Assembly (NCBI GenBank): GCA_016839705.1
Contig: JAEOTR010000043.1
Span: 1-43,242 of the forward strand
Direction of reading: 5' to 3'
DNA length: 43,242 nt
From: Promethearchaeota archaeon
GTDB lineage: Archaea; Asgardarchaeota; Lokiarchaeia; Sigyniarchaeales; SOKP01
Position 1 is the stretch's first letter; each line of letters opens with the position of its first letter. The position numbers were made by a program, and so were the translations under genes. Of the stretch, positions 6,686 through 41,648 are shown piece after piece. Under the pieces are notes generated by a model. That model worked only from the letters and a program-made list of their open reading frames with translations, had not been told where the DNA came from and searched no databases.

Positions 6686-7981
6686 CTAGGATTTTTGTTT
6701 TTTTTTCCATTCTAAAAAGCTTTTTGTTTCCTTACCTCGAAAAACAGCCTTTTTTCCAGGATTAGTTTTCTCATATTTATCATACAGCTCAATTTTTTGA
6801 TCTATGTTTATATGTTTTGATTCAACTTTAATTGTTTTAAGGTTGAGTTTAGCAGGCTTAGATCTCGGTTTGGTTTTAGATATAACCTCAAGAGGTTTTG
6901 ATTCTTGTTTTATTTCTTTATGAATTTCAGGGGATTGTTGTTCTGATATCATATTTTTACCTTTAAGATTAACGGTATCAATTCTTGGTTTATCGTCAAA
7001 TTGATCTTCTCTAATTTTTGAACTAATGATCAAAAGTTCATTTTCTTCTCTTTTCAATTTAATAAATGTTTCTAATTGTTGTTTACTTTTCTTTTCAGAA
7101 ATTTCTAATGATTTTTTTAACTTATCAACTAATTCTAAAGTTGATTTGATATTTTGCTTTTTTAATTGAATTAATTCTTCTTCTGTTTTTTTTATACCAT
7201 CAAGAAAATTATCTGAAATTGTTGTTTTCTGAGTTGAAATTTTTTGTAATTCCTGTTGAATAAATTCATAGTATTTTCTTTCTTTATGTTCTTGAGAGGG
7301 AATATCTTCTATTTTTATTTTCGGTTTTAGATCACTGAGTTTTAGTTCAATAGAACTTAAATTAACTAAATGTCCTCTCAATTCCTCTTCAGTCTTGCCT
7401 ATGAGCTCAATAAACTCTAAACTTGAATTTTCAGGAACTAGATCTGGAAATAAGATCTCGGATTTTTTCAAAAATGTGAAAATTAATAATTCAATACAGT
7501 CACTAACATTTAGGTTAGAATTAGCTGAAGTTATTGAAAAACTCTTTTTTTCCCCTAAGTAATTTTTAACTGCTTTTTTAAAATCGTTATTCAATGAGAG
7601 TTTATCAAATTTATTCCCAACCATAAGAGTAAACGGATCTTCTGAATATCTTTCTAATCTATCTAAAAAATTCTTCTCATGAGATTTTAACGTTAATTCT
7701 GGTCTCGTCATATCGAAAACTATAAGGGCAAGGTCAACATCAGAGAAAAATGCATTATTTATGGTGGGATTAATAGCCCTATTTCCTCCTACATCCCAAA
7801 TATTTAGTCTAAATGTTACACCTGTTTTTTTTAGTATATAATCTTTTCTACTTATAATACTATTAATCGTAGGCGAGTATTCTTTTGGTACTTCCTTTCC
7901 TAGAAATACATTTATTAATGATGTTTTTCCAACTGAACCTTCTCCATAAACGGCAAGTTTTAAATTAACCCTCTTATCCAA
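6686..7981 (-). CDS. Rab/Ras-like small GTPase fused to a coiled-coil region and a basic C-terminal module
   Basis: G1 GEGSVGKTS, G2 PTI, G3 WDVGG, G4 NKFD, G5 TSAN, followed by ~250 extra aa ending YDKYEKTNPGKKAVFRGKETKSFLEWKKK. Confidence 0.88.
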   Translation of the reverse strand: MDKRVNLKLAVYGEGSVGKTSLINVFLGKEVPKEYSPTINSIISRKDYILKKTGVTFRLNIWDVGGNRAINPTINNAFFSDVDLALIVFDMTRPELTLKSHEKNFLDRLERYSEDPFTLMVGNKFDKLSLNNDFKKAVKNYLGEKKSFSITSANSNLNVSDCIELLIFTFLKKSEILFPDLVPENSSLEFIELIGKTEEELRGHLVNLSSIELKLSDLKPKIKIEDIPSQEHKERKYYEFIQQELQKISTQKTTISDNFLDGIKKTEEELIQLKKQNIKSTLELVDKLKKSLEISEKKSKQQLETFIKLKREENELLIISSKIREDQFDDKPRIDTVNLKGKNMISEQQSPEIHKEIKQESKPLEVISKTKPRSKPAKLNLKTIKVESKHINIDQKIELYDKYEKTNPGKKAVFRGKETKSFLEWKKKQKS

Positions 7982-17480: not shown

Positions 17481-19001
17481 TCAGAGAATTTCGCTAATAT
17501 CTCTATAGAGAAGATCATGATTGGATTGAAATTGCTCATGTGTAATAAAAAGTTTCTGAAATGAAGGTAAACTCCCCAAAATAGCCGCACCGTTAAAGAT
17601 TGCAAATTGAAAATTGTCAGGAACAAAGAATTTTATCACTTTACTAGAGGATTCCATATATTCAGTAAATTCTTGAGCAGGTGTTTTTTCTTTTGGGATT
17701 TCAGGTTTCTCTAATGAATCAATTGACATTCCACAATAAGGACAAAATAGGGAAGTTGTGTCTTGTATTTCATTATTACAGTAAGGACATTTTTCAAGTT
17801 TTTTCTTTGAACCGCCACTCTCACTTCGAGAAGAAAAATCGATCCTTATTTCTGGTAAGGATACTCTTGCTCCACAAGAAGGACAATATTCATTACCAGA
17901 TGACAGATCTATAAGGGCGCCGCAATGGCTACAAGTATCACGTTGTTTTTTAGAAATCTCAACAGCTTGAAGCTTAATCAATTCAGTCTTCACCGTAGAT
18001 AAGGTTGGTTTTGGTTTAGGAATTGAACCTATTTGTGGTAGAACTGCATTGAGCTCTGATTGAAATCTTTGTTCAAAACCGCTATAGGATAAATTCCCCC
18101 CAGAAAATACTATATGGGACAAAAGATCATGCCAGTGTTGATTATCTAAAACTCTTAAACTAGCAATTACAGCTTCTGGAATGTTCATGACATTACTTAC
18201 ACCTAACATACTTGGATCAAAGAGAACTTCTGGGGCTTGATAAAGAACATGATTTGCAATATTGATAGTGGATCCATCAGGCATAGCGGCAGAAAATTTT
18301 TCTCCAGATTTTGGAGGATTATTGGGATCTATGACAAAGTAACAATTTTTCTCCTTTATATCTTGAATAATTTCATCTGCGGCACTACTAGATATATTCA
18401 CACCCTCTCTCATCAAAAGATTTTTTAGATTATGATTTACATCTATTCCTGCTATGGGAATCTTTTGAACAGCATGATCTTGCAAAACTCCGTTAATGAT
18501 TGGAGCTATCCATGTGAGACCATCACCAGATTCTATAACCAATCCCGTAGTTAGACCTACACTGAATAAGGACAACATTGGTGTAGGCATCATTATTAAG
18601 CTTTTAACACCATGAGTTTCAAACAATAATCTAGCAATATATTCTTTGGTTTCTCTATGCATAAAGGGTGATTCACAATAGAATACAGGATAATCTGAAA
18701 GAGTTTCTACTCTTAATAGGGAATAAAAAATATAGTTCAGAATTTCGTAGAAGCTATCCCACGACATAACAGCACCACGCTGAATTGGATGCGTTATCTT
18801 AAGAACACCGCGCATTCTTGAAACATCGTTTCCTACATAGATACTTCTAGCACTGACGTCAACCATCACAGATTTATATTTTTCAGTACCAGTAATGGAT
18901 GGAAATACAAATCTAGGACCAGGTTCTCCTGCAAATCCTATCTTTACATAAGCAGAGCCGATATCCACTATAATTGGTGTGCCGGGGAAAGGTAATGCCA
19001 T
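17481..19001 (-). CDS. Actin-related protein with a double zinc-ribbon insertion
   Basis: DIGSAYVKIGFAGEPGPRFVFPS, ESGDGLT, DIKEKNCY, PEVLFDPS, SGGN and GAAILGSL align with actin. The insert carries CSHC/CPSC/CPYC/CPYC. Confidence 0.95.
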   Translation of the reverse strand: MALPFPGTPIIVDIGSAYVKIGFAGEPGPRFVFPSITGTEKYKSVMVDVSARSIYVGNDVSRMRGVLKITHPIQRGAVMSWDSFYEILNYIFYSLLRVETLSDYPVFYCESPFMHRETKEYIARLLFETHGVKSLIMMPTPMLSLFSVGLTTGLVIESGDGLTWIAPIINGVLQDHAVQKIPIAGIDVNHNLKNLLMREGVNISSSAADEIIQDIKEKNCYFVIDPNNPPKSGEKFSAAMPDGSTINIANHVLYQAPEVLFDPSMLGVSNVMNIPEAVIASLRVLDNQHWHDLLSHIVFSGGNLSYSGFEQRFQSELNAVLPQIGSIPKPKPTLSTVKTELIKLQAVEISKKQRDTCSHCGALIDLSSGNEYCPSCGARVSLPEIRIDFSSRSESGGSKKKLEKCPYCNNEIQDTTSLFCPYCGMSIDSLEKPEIPKEKTPAQEFTEYMESSSKVIKFFVPDNFQFAIFNGAAILGSLPSFQKLFITHEQFQSNHDLLYRDISEIL

Positions 19002-29146: not shown

Positions 29147-29275
29147 ATAAAGATGATTTAGTTTATAAAACTTTGTGTATGATATAACGCTTTAATCTTG
29201 TTGTTAAAGAAGATTTAGTAAAATAATAGGAAAAAAAAAATTTAAAAATTAAAATGCTAGCTCTCGTTTTTGAAA
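29147..29275. repeat. Direct repeat copy A (permease 3' end FQKRELAF*, T-tract and guaB TATA region)
   Basis: The 22-bp ATGCTAGCTCTCGTTTTTGAAA at 29254-29275 is identical to 30944-30965. Looser similarity extends left to ~29147 at the same 1690-bp offset. Confidence 0.85.
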
Positions 29276-29311: not shown

Positions 29312-30664
29312 TTAATCTGTTTTTTCTTTACTTTCTATTCTATCTAATGCCTTTTGAATCTTATTCAATTTCTCTAATATTAATCCATCTTCTTGATTTT
29401 CTCGAGGTTTTTCTAAATCTTGATCTTGAACATCTATTAGCCGTATTTTATCCCTTATTGCCGTACGAATAAACTCAGATTGTGTTTGATGAAATATACG
29501 AGCATGCTTTTTTATATCTTCTAATTCAGCAACACTCACTACAAATTTGACTTGCTTGTCTTTTAATGCTTTTTCTACTATATATAATTCTTCTCTTCTT
29601 CTTTTTTTTTCAATTTTTCTTTCTCTTAGTTCTTCCTCATTAAGCTTTTCGAGGTAAGTTCCATTAGTATGAGCGGGAATAACATTTTTCTTATATTCAT
29701 TCATGATATCCCTTCTAATATTAGATTCCTGTTTGCGTATTCTGCATGATCCCGCTGATAAATGGAGTGACTTGAGTTCTAATACCGACTTCGGGATATT
29801 CTTTAATAAATTATCATCTACTTCACACATCCTTAGAGATTTTAAGTTCCCTATTGTTTCTGGAATTTTCTCTATTTTATTTGATGCTAATAAAAGAACT
29901 TCAAGTGATGTCAGTTTTTCAATCGACTCTGGTAGAATGCTTATTAGATTATTATTCAAATAAAGAACTTGAAGAGATTTTAAATTCCCTATTGACTCTG
30001 GAAGCGTTTCTAATCTATTATTGTTTAACCAAAAGGATCTAAGCGAAGAAAGGTTCCCTATTGACTCTGGGAGATTTTTTAATAAATTATCATTGAAATT
30101 TATGGATTTGAGTGATTTAATATCTCCTATTGATTCTGGTAGAAATTTTAACTGATTTTGTTGTATTTCTAGGCTCTCAAGAGACGTAAGGTTGCCTATT
30201 GATTCTGGAAGCGTAATTAACTGATTAAGATCGGGGAAAGTATCATGTATATTATTTATTGCAAGGCTTGTAAGAGATTTTAAATTCCCTATTGATTCTG
30301 GAAGTTTCCTTAATCTATTTGACCGAAGATTAAGATATATGAGTGATTCCAAATTTCCTATTGATTCTGGTAATGTTGTCAATTGGTTCCCTAGTATAAA
30401 GAGTTTTGTGAGTGATGTGAGGTTTCCAATCGAATCAGGGAGTTCCGCTAATTTGCTATACCATGCTTTATCATGTAAATTTGGGTAACCCAGGTTTAGC
30501 TCTATTACATGTTCGTTCTCTATTGTCACCCCAAAAGGTGAAAAGGGAGGTGAATTCTTCGTCCCCATTTGAGGAATAGATTTACCAATTAACTCTTCTA
30601 AATCTTTTAGTGTTTTGGCTTCCTCAGTTTTTAGCTTAATCTTATCATTTATTCTTTCACTCAT
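29312..30664 (-). CDS. Leucine-rich repeat protein fused to a C-terminal ribbon-helix-helix (CopG/Arc/MetJ-like) domain
   Basis: About 10 23-aa LPESIGNL-type LRRs, a charged linker, then KQVKFVVSVAELEDIKKHARIFHQTQSEFIRTAIRDKI (beta-alpha-alpha with S-E-F-I-R) and a short terminal coiled coil. Confidence 0.88.
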   Translation of the reverse strand: MSERINDKIKLKTEEAKTLKDLEELIGKSIPQMGTKNSPPFSPFGVTIENEHVIELNLGYPNLHDKAWYSKLAELPDSIGNLTSLTKLFILGNQLTTLPESIGNLESLIYLNLRSNRLRKLPESIGNLKSLTSLAINNIHDTFPDLNQLITLPESIGNLTSLESLEIQQNQLKFLPESIGDIKSLKSINFNDNLLKNLPESIGNLSSLRSFWLNNNRLETLPESIGNLKSLQVLYLNNNLISILPESIEKLTSLEVLLLASNKIEKIPETIGNLKSLRMCEVDDNLLKNIPKSVLELKSLHLSAGSCRIRKQESNIRRDIMNEYKKNVIPAHTNGTYLEKLNEEELRERKIEKKRRREELYIVEKALKDKQVKFVVSVAELEDIKKHARIFHQTQSEFIRTAIRDKIRLIDVQDQDLEKPRENQEDGLILEKLNKIQKALDRIESKEKTD

Positions 30665-30733
30665 TTTTTAATATCCACCTTACTTATTTTTTTAACAATT
30701 TTACTTTATTAATGGGATTGAATCATAAAAAGA

Positions 30734-30757
30734 TAGTACAAGTTTGGTACAAGTTTT
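30734..30757. promoter_or_regulatory. Putative operator box 1, TAGTACAAGTTTGGTACAAGTTTT
   Basis: Two GTACAA repeats 11 bp apart; overlaps the expected transcription start of the LRR-RHH gene. Confidence 0.7.
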
Positions 30758-30781
30758 CTGTAAAAATAATGGTAATTTCCC

Positions 30782-30789
30782 TTTATAAA
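30782..30789 (-). promoter_or_regulatory. TATA box of the LRR-RHH gene
   Basis: TTTATAAA lying between the two 24-bp boxes. Confidence 0.6.
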
Positions 30790-30791
30790 TC

Positions 30792-30815
30792 TAGTACAAA
30801 TTTGGTACAAGTTTT
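30792..30815. promoter_or_regulatory. Putative operator box 2, TAGTACAAATTTGGTACAAGTTTT
   Basis: 23/24 identical to box 1 and 58 bp away; covers the BRE position. Confidence 0.7.
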
Positions 30816-30836: not shown

Positions 30837-30965
30837 ATAAAGATAATTTAATTTATAAAGCTTTTGCATGGTAGAATCCCATAATTTTGGTGTTTATAGA
30901 AGATTTTGAAAAATAATAAAAAAAAATTTCTTTTAGATTTAATATGCTAGCTCTCGTTTTTGAAA
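30837..30965. repeat. Direct repeat copy B (permease 3' end FQKRELAY*, T-tract and TATA region)
   Basis: Homologous to 29147-29275, e.g. ATAAAGATAATTTAATTTATAAAG vs ATAAAGATGATTTAGTTTATAAAA, and GAAGATTTTGAAAAATAATA vs GAAGATTTAGTAAAATAATA. Confidence 0.85.
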
Positions 30966-31187
30966 AATATAAAGAGCTCCCACTAATGCTATTATTCCAA
31001 CAGCAATTACAATTAATAGCTCATTTATCGGCATTGCCCCGGAACTAACTATCGTTCCAGCATTCAGATAGTTAAAAAGTGAGAAAAGTTTTAATGGTTC
31101 AGCATTACTGACCATTCCCCCAACTCTTACTAAAACATACTGTCCAAAAATCACTATCCCTGCTGCAGGTAACGCTTTCTTAGACAA
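30939..31187 (-). pseudogene. 5'-truncated second ABC-2 permease (C-terminal third only)
   Basis: Aligns to the C-terminus of the adjacent permease (LKLFSLFNY vs IRYISIFYY; IFQKREL vs IFNKRDI). An in-frame stop lies a few codons upstream and there is no room for the N-terminal part. Confidence 0.75.
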
Positions 31188-33175: not shown

Positions 33176-33694
33176 ATGATAGATAAGAAACTTTTGAGCA
33201 GAAATCATCTTTTTCAAGGGAAGATTAAAGAATATGAGCAAATATTAATTGAATTTGTATTAGAATCTGGGAGAGCGAAGAGTGTTGATCCAAATCTTCA
33301 ATTAATTCTTGGTTATATTGGAATTCATAAAAGTTTGACCCAAAAAGAGTTAAAAGATCTAACAGGTCTGTCTGCAGGGACAATTTCAAAAAAATTAGGA
33401 GACATATTAACTCTCGGAGTTATAAAAAAGGAGAAAATTCCTAAAACCAATCAATTTTTATATATAAATGCACCGGAAGCATACGTAGATACCGCTGATG
33501 CAACATTAGAGGAATTCATTGAAATTAATGAATTTCTTAAAAAAAAAATCACTGAGATTGAAAAATTTAAAGACAAAAAAGGCGCTGAATTTCTTTCTGA
33601 ACGAATAAAAAGCTTAATAAAGACTTTTGAAACCGTCCAAAATATCTGGTCTGATTTAGAATTTATTTTTACACAAAAAAAGAAAGAAACCTAA
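33176..33694 (+). CDS. GbsR/MarR-like winged-helix transcriptional regulator (paralog 1)
   Basis: LTQKELKDLTGLSAGTISKKL HTH; divergent from the ABC operon. Confidence 0.85.
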   Translation: MIDKKLLSRNHLFQGKIKEYEQILIEFVLESGRAKSVDPNLQLILGYIGIHKSLTQKELKDLTGLSAGTISKKLGDILTLGVIKKEKIPKTNQFLYINAPEAYVDTADATLEEFIEINEFLKKKITEIEKFKDKKGAEFLSERIKSLIKTFETVQNIWSDLEFIFTQKKKET

Positions 33695-33696
33695 TC

Positions 33697-34206
33697 ATGA
33701 TTTTAGAAGAAAAATTTGAACCCGAAATTAAAATTATTGAAAATGAGATAATTGATACCTTATTAAAATATACTGTTTTTTCTGTTCGAGGTGAAATAAC
33801 ATCTAAAATTCTTTTTTATTTTATAACTAGAAAAGACTTATCCCAATCTGAACTCCAAGATTTAACAGGTTTTTCTGCGGGGAAAATTTCTCAGGAGATT
33901 AACAATTTTCTGGAGTTTAATTTAATACGGATCTCTAAAAAATCGAAACCATGGATCTATTCAATGGAATCTGTGGTTGCTGAAACTTTTAGTAGAGCGA
34001 TTAACCTTTTAAAAACGAATGTTAAATGGGAATCAAAGTTCCTTGAAATGAAAGAAGATTTGGAAATAAATAGAGAAAAACTTCAAAAATTAAATGGGTA
34101 CGATGAAGTAAAGGATTTTCTTGAAATAAACTTAATGAGATTCTCTGGATTTAAGAGTATAATAAAACTTTGGGAAGAACTTAAAAAAAAATATGAAAAT
34201 GAGTAA
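33697..34206 (+). CDS. GbsR/MarR-like winged-helix transcriptional regulator (paralog 2)
   Basis: LSQSELQDLTGFSAGKISQEI HTH; starts 2 bp after paralog 1. Confidence 0.85.
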   Translation: MILEEKFEPEIKIIENEIIDTLLKYTVFSVRGEITSKILFYFITRKDLSQSELQDLTGFSAGKISQEINNFLEFNLIRISKKSKPWIYSMESVVAETFSRAINLLKTNVKWESKFLEMKEDLEINREKLQKLNGYDEVKDFLEINLMRFSGFKSIIKLWEELKKKYENE

Positions 34207-38081: not shown

Positions 38082-38678
38082 ATGAGTTATGACAGAAAAA
38101 ACATTCTATATAGCTTTAAAATCGTAATATGTGGAAGTAATTCTGTCGGAAAAACATGCCTGTTCAATCGATATTGTTTCAATTCATTTAATTTTGACAG
38201 CTCTCCGACCATAGGAATTAATTTTCATTCAATTAATTTAAAAATTAATAATGAAAAAAATCCTGATATGCTAAGTGAACATTACATTGTGAATTCAATT
38301 TTCGATTTTGGGGGTCAAGAGAGATTCAAACCATTAGTAGGTCAATTTTTGGAAGGTTCTTCTGGAGCTCTTCTAGTTTTTGATTCTGTAAGTCATTCAT
38401 CATTTCAAGAGTTAGATTTTTGGTATGAGCAACTAATTACTAATGCTATAAGCTCCGATATACCAATATTATTAGTGGGAAGTAAAAGTGATTTATTAGA
38501 AAAAACTCCTGAGTCAAATATAGTCGATGAAAAGTTAATCCATAAATATATGGAAGAAAGACAGTTAGATGGCTTTTTCAGAACATCTGCTCTAGAGAAC
38601 TACAATGTTTTAAAAGTATTTAAAGAACTTAATAATTTGATGTTGAAACGACTACGTAAACCTTTCATTGTTGCATAA
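38082..38678 (+). CDS. Rab-like small GTPase
   Basis: GSNSVGKT, PTIG, FDFGGQERF, SKSD, TSA; no C-terminal prenylation Cys. Confidence 0.92.
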   Translation: MSYDRKNILYSFKIVICGSNSVGKTCLFNRYCFNSFNFDSSPTIGINFHSINLKINNEKNPDMLSEHYIVNSIFDFGGQERFKPLVGQFLEGSSGALLVFDSVSHSSFQELDFWYEQLITNAISSDIPILLVGSKSDLLEKTPESNIVDEKLIHKYMEERQLDGFFRTSALENYNVLKVFKELNNLMLKRLRKPFIVA

Positions 38679-40442: not shown

Positions 40443-41648
40443 ATGCTAAGATTATCCCCTAAGGAAATTTATAAAGATTTCAAAACTACAAAAATTAATA
40501 AGGACAAAGCATCCGAATTATTAATCTCATTAATTGAAAATCCTTTGGAATTGGACAATCGGGAAAGGAATTTATGCATAGAATTAATAGGGGTAATCGG
40601 ATCTAAAGAAAAAAATGTATTTCTTTTCTTAGAGAATTTATTAATATCTGATTTAAATGATTTAATACGGGGAAATGCAGCAATGATTATTATAAGCAAT
40701 TTCCCTGAACATGCATTAGAACCAATTAAATGGGCTTTACGACATGAAGAATCAGAGACGTCCATCGTCTTAATAATCAAAGCATTAGAAAAATCTGGTG
40801 ATTTAAAATTAAGATCATTATTGAAAGATGTTGAATATGTAGAAGTTGAGGGAAAGTTCTTTTTCCCTTATGGAAATTTTCAAAGTATTAATTTAAGTAG
40901 TAGGAATATCATCAATATATTAAAGATTAAGGGATTGGGTAATTTAGTAAATTTAAGTAAACTGAATTTAAATTTCAATGAAATATCAGAAATCGAGGGT
41001 TTGAATGCTCTAGTTAACTTGAAATCTTTACACCTTCAAGGAAATAAAATTAGAAAGATTAAAGGATTAGACCGATTAGTAAGTTTAGAATACTTATACC
41101 TTAATAATAATGAAATTACAAAGATTCAAGGGATCGAGAACCTTTCTAAGCTAAAATCATTGATGATCTATGATAACCAGATCCCAGAAATCAAAAAATT
41201 GGAACATCTTTCAAACTTAGAGATATTAAATCTACGGAATAATAGAATATCTGAAATTGAAGGATTACAGAATTTCACTAAATTAAGAAGATTAGATCTT
41301 AGTAGTAATAATATAAATGAAATTAAAGATTTAGATAACCTTGTCAACCTAGAATTTTTGGATCTTAGCTACAATCAAATTACTGAAATTAAAGGATTAG
41401 ATAGCCTAAAAAATTTAAAGTTTTTAGATCTAAGAAATAACAAGATAAGAACAATCAAACAATTGAAAATATTAAAACAGCTACAACATTTATACCTTGG
41501 TTTCAATAGAATATCATTATTGGAAGATAATGAAACTCTGAATCATAAAAATACTCTTGAGGCTATAGGTATTGAGGGGAAATCAATATCAAACTCACCA
41601 TTTGATTTTTTTTACAAATTTAGATCACGTAAAAACTCAACAAATTAA
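40443..41648 (+). CDS. HEAT-repeat plus SDS22-type LRR protein
   Basis: FLENLLISD...IRGNAA HEAT unit, then about 10 22-aa repeats of the L..L.L..N.I.EI.GL..L type. Confidence 0.88.
   Translation: MLRLSPKEIYKDFKTTKINKDKASELLISLIENPLELDNRERNLCIELIGVIGSKEKNVFLFLENLLISDLNDLIRGNAAMIIISNFPEHALEPIKWALRHEESETSIVLIIKALEKSGDLKLRSLLKDVEYVEVEGKFFFPYGNFQSINLSSRNIINILKIKGLGNLVNLSKLNLNFNEISEIEGLNALVNLKSLHLQGNKIRKIKGLDRLVSLEYLYLNNNEITKIQGIENLSKLKSLMIYDNQIPEIKKLEHLSNLEILNLRNNRISEIEGLQNFTKLRRLDLSSNNINEIKDLDNLVNLEFLDLSYNQITEIKGLDSLKNLKFLDLRNNKIRTIKQLKILKQLQHLYLGFNRISLLEDNETLNHKNTLEAIGIEGKSISNSPFDFFYKFRSRKNSTN

Follow-up and report, generated by a model that had tools for sequence, protein, structure and literature searches.

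Familiar ribbon-helix-helix (RHH) regulators with an input part are NikR (ACT, nickel), MetJ (SAM), PutA (an enzyme) and the antitoxins RelB, ParD, AtaR and TacA. Each of them, like the protein described here, combines an RHH and a part that binds a ligand or partner within one chain. In archaea, RHH repressors work by covering the BRE and the start site, and our locus shares with Arc, Mnt, CopG and the archaeal viral proteins SvtR, AvtR and F55 the RHH, the tandem short subsites and operators over the BRE and the gene's own start site (PMC5569661). Proteins of the Arc/CopG/SvtR type stand alone at ~50-100 aa, whereas in the window (the whole stretch of DNA that was analysed, 43,242 nt from a Lokiarchaeia genome) the RHH is C-terminal in a 450-aa chain, behind leucine-rich repeats (LRRs) and a further module, W (Table 1).

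In our proposal the gene is a mobile cassette of Loki-type Asgard archaea that regulates itself. Its RHH repressor would bind pairs of GTAC subsites 11 bp (one helical turn) apart, probably with one dimer per subsite, and with one pair over the BRE and the other over the start site it would block TFB/TBP and RNA polymerase. The N-terminal domain would be an exchangeable partner-binding part, an LRR with a fast-changing face here and a switch-less Ras-like domain or none in relatives. A protein partner on the LRR (or on W) would remove or weaken the repressor, making synthesis proportional to partner supply, as with RHH antitoxins and NikR-type regulators, and the circuit would put out the protein plus whatever gene comes to lie behind its promoter. 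We give this model as a whole, with a self-repressing RHH, an exchangeable partner-binding front end and partner-dependent derepression, a probability of about 55%. Repression of its own promoter by the LRR-W-RHH protein is very probable; whether a partner modulates that repression is an even bet, and the LRR as main input is less likely than not.

Domain architecture of the 450-aa protein

Table 1. Predicted features of the locus, in window coordinates
Feature	Position	Strand	Evidence
82-codon remnant, ABC-2 permease C-terminus-like	30939..31187	-	sequence
Upstream copy of ~130-bp direct repeat: 3' end of permease-like gene, T-rich tract, guaB-type TATA	30837..30965	-	
Operator box 1 (GTAC-N7-GTAC), predicted	30792..30815	.	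sequence; same geometry in homologues
TATA box TTTATAAA of predicted promoter	30782..30789	-	sequence; TATA-like element at equal offset in homologues
Operator box 2, predicted, at or just past expected start site	30734..30757	.	sequence; homologues
Shine-Dalgarno-like AGGTGG, 11 nt 5' of ATG	30675..30680	-	sequence
Gene for 450-aa protein (N-cap/LRR/W/RHH/coiled-helix)	29312..30664	-	ORF call; homologues; purifying selection on LRR core and RHH
N-terminal LRR cap, residues ~10-60, helix and beta hairpin	30485..30637	-	AF2 model; alignment A4
Ten 23-residue LRRs, residues 75-303, Leptospira/SHOC2-like	29756..30442	-	Pfam, repeat alignment, structure matches
W module, residues ~313-369: helix, G-x-x-L-x-K motif, charged helix	29558..29728	-	profiles and model
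RHH domain, residues 368-412, recognition strand QVKFVV	29429..29563	-	Pfam sub-threshold, AF2, Foldseek
C-terminal amphipathic helix, residues ~428-447	29324..29383	-	conserved ELxxIRxxL pattern; helix in both models
Downstream direct-repeat copy, contains native guaB promoter region	29147..29275	-	81% over 149 nt to empty site, G093

Homologues of the LRR-W-RHH protein are P0002-P0004 and those of about ten further genomes, and the N-terminal cap is kept among them (alignment A4). There are ten LPxxIxxL repeats, spaced by 23 residues, and an 8-residue loop is inserted in one of them; LRR_14, LRR_8, LRR_4, LRR_13 and LRR_1 of Pfam are all above cut-off, and Pfam and the AF2 model agree on a curved solenoid of tandem LxxLxLxxN-type repeats. 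Copy number among homologues is 8-10, and the loop of repeat 3 differs in length (31, 37 and 51 residues in P0001-P0003). The NCBIfam effector matches XopAC and XopL cover the LRR part only and lie far under cut-off. The nearest solved folds found by structure search are Leptospira LRR proteins and SHOC2; Leptospira LIC11098 and LIC10831 and SHOC2 have the same 23-residue LRR solenoid but carry nothing that binds DNA. Although Ras is a ligand of SHOC2, a common ligand does not follow from similarity of fold between LRRs.

The C-terminus is modelled as an extended strand, helix, turn and helix (AF2 monomer, residues 368-412), and essentially all of the 50 listed Foldseek matches are RHH proteins, with CopG leading (probability 0.99, rmsd 1.7 A). 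The top matches, which include Rv0298 and TacA, have probabilities of 0.97-0.99 and rmsd of 1.1-1.9 A over 36-48 residues; their E-values are weak (E > 0.2) because the RHH domain is short. Atlas RHH_1 clusters match the region at 0.85, and in a wide structural search RHH antitoxins came up at Z ~5, which by itself is not decisive. By sequence, the Pfam NikA-like family (PF21983) reaches 22.5 bits, under its cut-off of 27, RHH_1 (PF01402) is not listed, a profile of the RHH has zero RHH matches in the PDB, and aCcr1 is a weak match (E 0.04). The final helix is a probable oligomerisation helix. The preliminary description of this DNA had read the protein as about ten LRRs, a C-terminal RHH-like domain and a short coiled coil, and the ORF, Pfam, AF2 and Foldseek bear out the repeats, the RHH and a short helix, with the RHH fold itself supported by the AF2 monomer and Foldseek on residues 368-412. 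Its fusion of LRR and RHH in one chain also stands, but the linker is not plain, since W is a separate conserved module between the two.

Operator boxes and the recognition strand

The two boxes are 58 bp apart and bracket the TATA box. On the minus strand box 1 ends 3 nt before it and so lies over the BRE position; the expected transcription start, ~30759, is placed from the TATA spacing. The same geometry holds across the family, where box 1 ends ~3 nt before the TATA element and the start of box 2 lies 49-58 bp beyond box 1 (40 in one case), so that box 2 falls on the expected start site. The preliminary description had two 24-bp boxes, identical at 23 of 24 positions, flanking the TATA box over the BRE and the start site, each holding a GTACAA direct repeat. 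The boxes and their placement hold up; the direct repeat does not, and the conserved element in the family is the palindrome-like (ta)TGTAC-N7-GTACA(ta).

An exact GTAC-N7-GTAC lies at most 300 nt upstream in 36/40 relatives' genes with a Q[VI]KF strand, and two boxes are present in 25, against a background of 1/2275 ORFs of the host genome, the one being the LRR-RHH gene itself. The pairing of box and RHH that the preliminary description had proposed to look for is found in other genomes. Two of the four exceptions are frameshifted fragments with misplaced starts, one of which has both boxes; the third is a pseudogene with a decayed box, and the last has its box one gene farther upstream. Metagenome loci, which partially overlap the genome set, have the box at 23/26. 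In four loci (L003, L007, L008, L010) a conserved 47-58-codon mini-ORF or remnant, beginning MTQMLLKKPEQEE and resembling part of W, lies between box 2 and the LRR gene and displaces the boxes 200-290 nt from the start. Elsewhere a box lies between XerC/D-like recombinase and SDR genes (L088:2219-4233 in G024; L089 in G025), one gene upstream of a Ras-W-RHH-W gene with two W copies, possibly an RHH-controlled small operon.

No other target came to light. A scan for GTACAA-N5-GTACAA, proposed from the outset, finds in the 3.36-Mb genome just the two promoter boxes, and the best weight-matrix matches elsewhere in it score at most 16, against a training median of 27. Over 135 genomes the box is not enriched genome-wide relative to a reversed control. 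Nothing therefore points to a regulon, and the genome scans detected the gene's own promoter as the only target. A sigma-70 scan was at chance and is irrelevant to an archaeal promoter.

Relatives of the RHH occur in 57/134 host-family genomes and in one neighbouring family; all further families sampled within the phylum gave none. Within this range the recognition strand and the operator motif change together. The clade of the LRR-RHH gene has Val in place of Leu in the strand and a variant box spacer. Paralogues with an F[IV]K[IV]M strand have the GTAC box in 0/16 cases; each has at least three GATC in 150 nt, and the stretch from TATA to start codon holds three to six such repeats. A gene with a QITFW strand has TATATAG repeats, and QIKFL genes group with the GATC clade yet retain GTAC. 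Since all GATC genes belong to a single clade, the number of independent changes behind the co-variation is about three rather than dozens. The RHH tree, built on 49 columns, lacks the resolution to put the domain swaps in order. Stand-alone RHH-W paralogues (L035, L036, L044, L051-L053, L147-L159) carry tandem TGATCA with a ~9-bp period from TATA to start codon. The co-variation is the pattern expected if the RHH strand reads the motif. Together with operator conservation it gives comparative support to the autorepression first suggested for this gene, and autoregulation by the RHH through boxes in its own promoter appears well supported. In the least exciting case, the family would still be a clean natural example of an RHH recognition strand and its operator changing together.

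Exchangeable front ends and the W module

The same RHH and operators occur in LRR-W-RHH, Ras-W-RHH, Ras-RHH, W-RHH and RHH-W architectures. Most fused genes sit at a single locus behind a glycyl-radical enzyme gene, with an LRR, a Ras-like domain or no front end depending on the genome, and two W-RHH genes that keep both boxes nest among the LRR genes in the tree, having apparently lost the LRR. The Ras-like domain is above the Pfam Ras cut-off, keeps G1 and G4, and is without the switch I Thr and the DxxG Gly; such switch-less fusions with the same operators are found at L012-L014, L016, L018-L027, L030, L042 and others, and ~20 Ras-RHH members are without W. At this orthologous locus the operators are kept where the LRR has been replaced by a Ras-like domain or lost, and they are intact in W-less members too. 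The circuit can therefore do without the LRR, and neither module is needed for its core. A Roco arrangement (LRR-Roc-COR) was rejected: LRR and Ras-like domains alternate and never co-occur, and the longest RHH-family representative found has 459 aa.

At concave LRR positions pN/pS is at least 0.8 in 6/9 pairs and at convex positions at most 0.52 in 9/9, with a strongly constrained LRR core; the pairs are few, uncorrected and not independent, and the ratios are sensitive to repeat shuffling. A concave face near neutrality on a constrained convex scaffold fits what a variable surface for a protein ligand would look like, as the preliminary description had guessed. The front end could also have nothing to do with DNA binding. 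The RHH and operators might serve as a dosage tag, fixing a low level and dimerising the protein while the LRR or Ras-like part works elsewhere and DNA binding stays unchanged. Domains swapped or lost over unchanged operators and the single detected target agree with this, as does the join between LRR and RHH, which is flexible and of low confidence in the AF2 model (pLDDT < 50 at residues 305-321 and 330-338, no confident packing of the two domains). Yet a small stand-alone repressor gene would suffice without fusion, both fused domains are of the interaction type, and the repressor would in any case be titrated by a partner that is large or localised. We regard a pure dosage role as unlikely, and continue to prefer the partner-responsive cassette.

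Most RHH architectures include W, which may precede or follow the RHH. By profile comparison it is homologous to a stand-alone ~50-aa WH2/thymosin-like peptide: a profile from the fused linkers alone has a W-type match in 123/134 family genomes, with peptides mostly at E 1e-8 to 1e-12, and the peptide profile scores 23.3 bits on the linker of the 450-aa protein, against at most 8.8 in 2000 shuffles. The best PDB match of the peptide profile is the N-WASP tandem WH2 (E 0.0028), WH2 makes up 3/8 matches, MIM WH2 included, and among named Atlas clusters thymosin matches it best (0.89, with 171 features in common). Its invariant residues coincide with the I-x-x-G-x-x-L-x-K-V positions of WH2. In the host genome a 51-aa peptide (G000 C25:30377-30529; L085:3378-3530:+) lies between a RimI-like acetyltransferase and pelota; the stand-alone peptide has 416 related protein-database clusters and equal synteny in several genera. 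In genus g11 a long-form W is fused to Asgard profilin (E 6e-10 to 5ZZA) with a further C-terminal domain (L236:776-1531, L238-L241), and G016 encodes a 505-aa protein of ~10 tandem W repeats with no Pfam match (L228:1330-2844), reminiscent of tandem-WH2 actin nucleators or multi-repeat thymosins. A word-index search, a weak one, gave no longer peptide fusions; it was the genome search that yielded the profilin fusions.

This ancestry opens a reading in which the repressor would be an actin-monomer sensor: W would bind G-actin like WH2 or beta-thymosin, actin would alter operator binding, making a single-protein counterpart of the MRTF-SRF loop, and the LRR would be accessory. The peptide homology, the fusion to profilin, the tandem copies and the spread of W among architectures all lean towards it, as does the invariance of G335 and L338 in LRR fusions. 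So does one locus in G030 (C166), where a duplicate, 99% identical Lokiactin gene begins 15 nt after a box-bearing W-RHH gene (L086:4162-5829), G030 having another actin copy on C241; the junction is repeated on two metagenome contigs (L278, L280), and in close relatives actin is absent there. Against this, actin adjacency is confined to one lineage, thirty ordinary actin loci checked have zero boxes, and the ~20 Ras-RHH members do without W. Neither peptide nor linker matches Pfam WH2 (PF02205) or Thymosin (PF01290), and the linker profile has no WH2 match in the PDB. The layout of helix and G-x-x-L-[KR]-[KR]-[VT] is near-canonical in the peptide and profilin fusions, but in RHH fusions the helix before the Gly has a Pro and usually not the key Ile, and the second helix is 3-4 residues farther off than in profilin fusions; the W of the 450-aa protein keeps G, L and K with a degenerate WH2 helix. 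From these features, actin binding by this W looks doubtful, and control of DNA binding by actin, the core of the sensor reading, is improbable. Equally so is the broader idea of an Asgard factor that would use a WH2-like module to sense the pool of free actin monomers and the LRR to sense a second, variable protein ligand (nucleotide state through the Ras-like domain in relatives), feed both into repression of its own promoter and, in one lineage, control an actin gene copy. If true, it would be a prokaryotic cytoskeleton-to-transcription feedback loop, and a W that binds actin would make the protein an archaeal analogue of actin-sensing transcription. The main Lokiactin is 96-100% identical family-wide, and some genomes have another copy at 81-85% (L084:4132-5274, L094-L123). 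About 10 kb from the LRR-RHH gene the window encodes an actin-related protein (17481-19001, minus strand; E 1e-65 to Pfam Actin) that ends in double zinc ribbons at its C-terminus.

Genomic setting and comparison with known systems

In many genus members examined, an ABC-2 permease gene and guaB are separated by 100-190 bp. The host genome has ~2 kb there: the permease-like remnant comes first, and then the operator and gene between two copies of the guaB-upstream region. No full copy of the remnant's permease was found in the host assembly. The host is of the Loki type, and relatives of one of its peptides bear the label Promethearchaeota. The flanking copies are 79% identical over 130 bp, so the cassette was inserted with duplication, and not recently. 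The three closest relatives lie at other loci, and hence this clade of the gene moves. In several genus members other, unrelated genes occupy the same interval (L173, L178, L183, L185, L172, L192), which suggests that it is an insertion hot spot. A same-clade pseudogene with deleted LRRs, a frameshift and a decayed box lies beside a VapBC-like pair in G105 (L092:3980-4680). Elsewhere in the window are two tandem MarR-like winged-helix genes divergent from an ABC transporter operon (33176-34206, plus strand), a gene start that by eye resembles the C15 HEAT-like plus LRR proteins (40443-41648, plus) and, also by eye, two small-GTPase-like genes (38082-38678, plus; 6686-7981, minus).

A lineage-specific insertion between direct repeats, with pseudogenes and frameshifts in the family and RHH antitoxins among its fold neighbours, could be taken for an antitoxin-like or selfish element, in which the RHH would autoregulate a toxin-antitoxin or defence module or be a passenger without host function. 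We consider this very improbable. The next gene in the window is guaB, the loci read have no recurrent toxin neighbour, and most members occupy the one stable locus behind the glycyl-radical enzyme gene; the 2-kb insert contains no transposase or integrase. No relative was found in viral contigs and there is no PADLOC match; these searches give no sign of the viral link raised in the preliminary description or of a defence link.

The proposed self-repressing cassette can be set against several described systems. Compared with NikR and the antitoxins, it has eukaryote-type inputs (LRR, Ras-like, WH2-like) that are swapped among relatives, no toxin gene and a C-terminal RHH. The Sulfolobales cell-cycle regulator aCcr1 is also an RHH protein (PMC9976878) and shares the fold, as a weak match, but it stands alone and has a regulon, whereas for the LRR-RHH protein none was detected. 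WH2-like motifs are carried by Asgard gelsolins (PMC9433394); W has the WH2/beta-thymosin order of helix, G-x-x-L-x-K and helix, clear in the peptide and profilin fusions, with the pre-Gly helix here degenerate, lengthened and sub-Pfam. Animal MRTF-SRF, with its RPEL, offers a possible functional analogy, from cytoskeletal state to transcription, with no homology to RPEL or SRF.

In the literature searched, with most subscription papers outside the search, there is no description of LRR-, Ras- or WH2-like-RHH fusions in Asgard archaea and no report of a WH2 domain fused to a DNA-binding domain. What is new is the LRR form within a swappable set, the co-variation of strand and motif, the homology of the linker to a WH2-like peptide and the placement of actin in G030. 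Very little has been described of the ways in which Asgard archaea connect their eukaryote-like LRRs, Ras-type GTPases and actin regulators to regulation. This family, which joins LRR, Ras-like and W parts to a plain prokaryotic repressor, is a candidate for coupling sensing parts of eukaryotic style directly to the control of a gene. Because the operator is already defined, any input could be read with one short DNA probe, and the natural variants (LRR, Ras-like or none; with or without W; GTAC or GATC) are built-in controls. By analogy, we infer that the protein works like an Arc/CopG autorepressor to which an input domain has been added.
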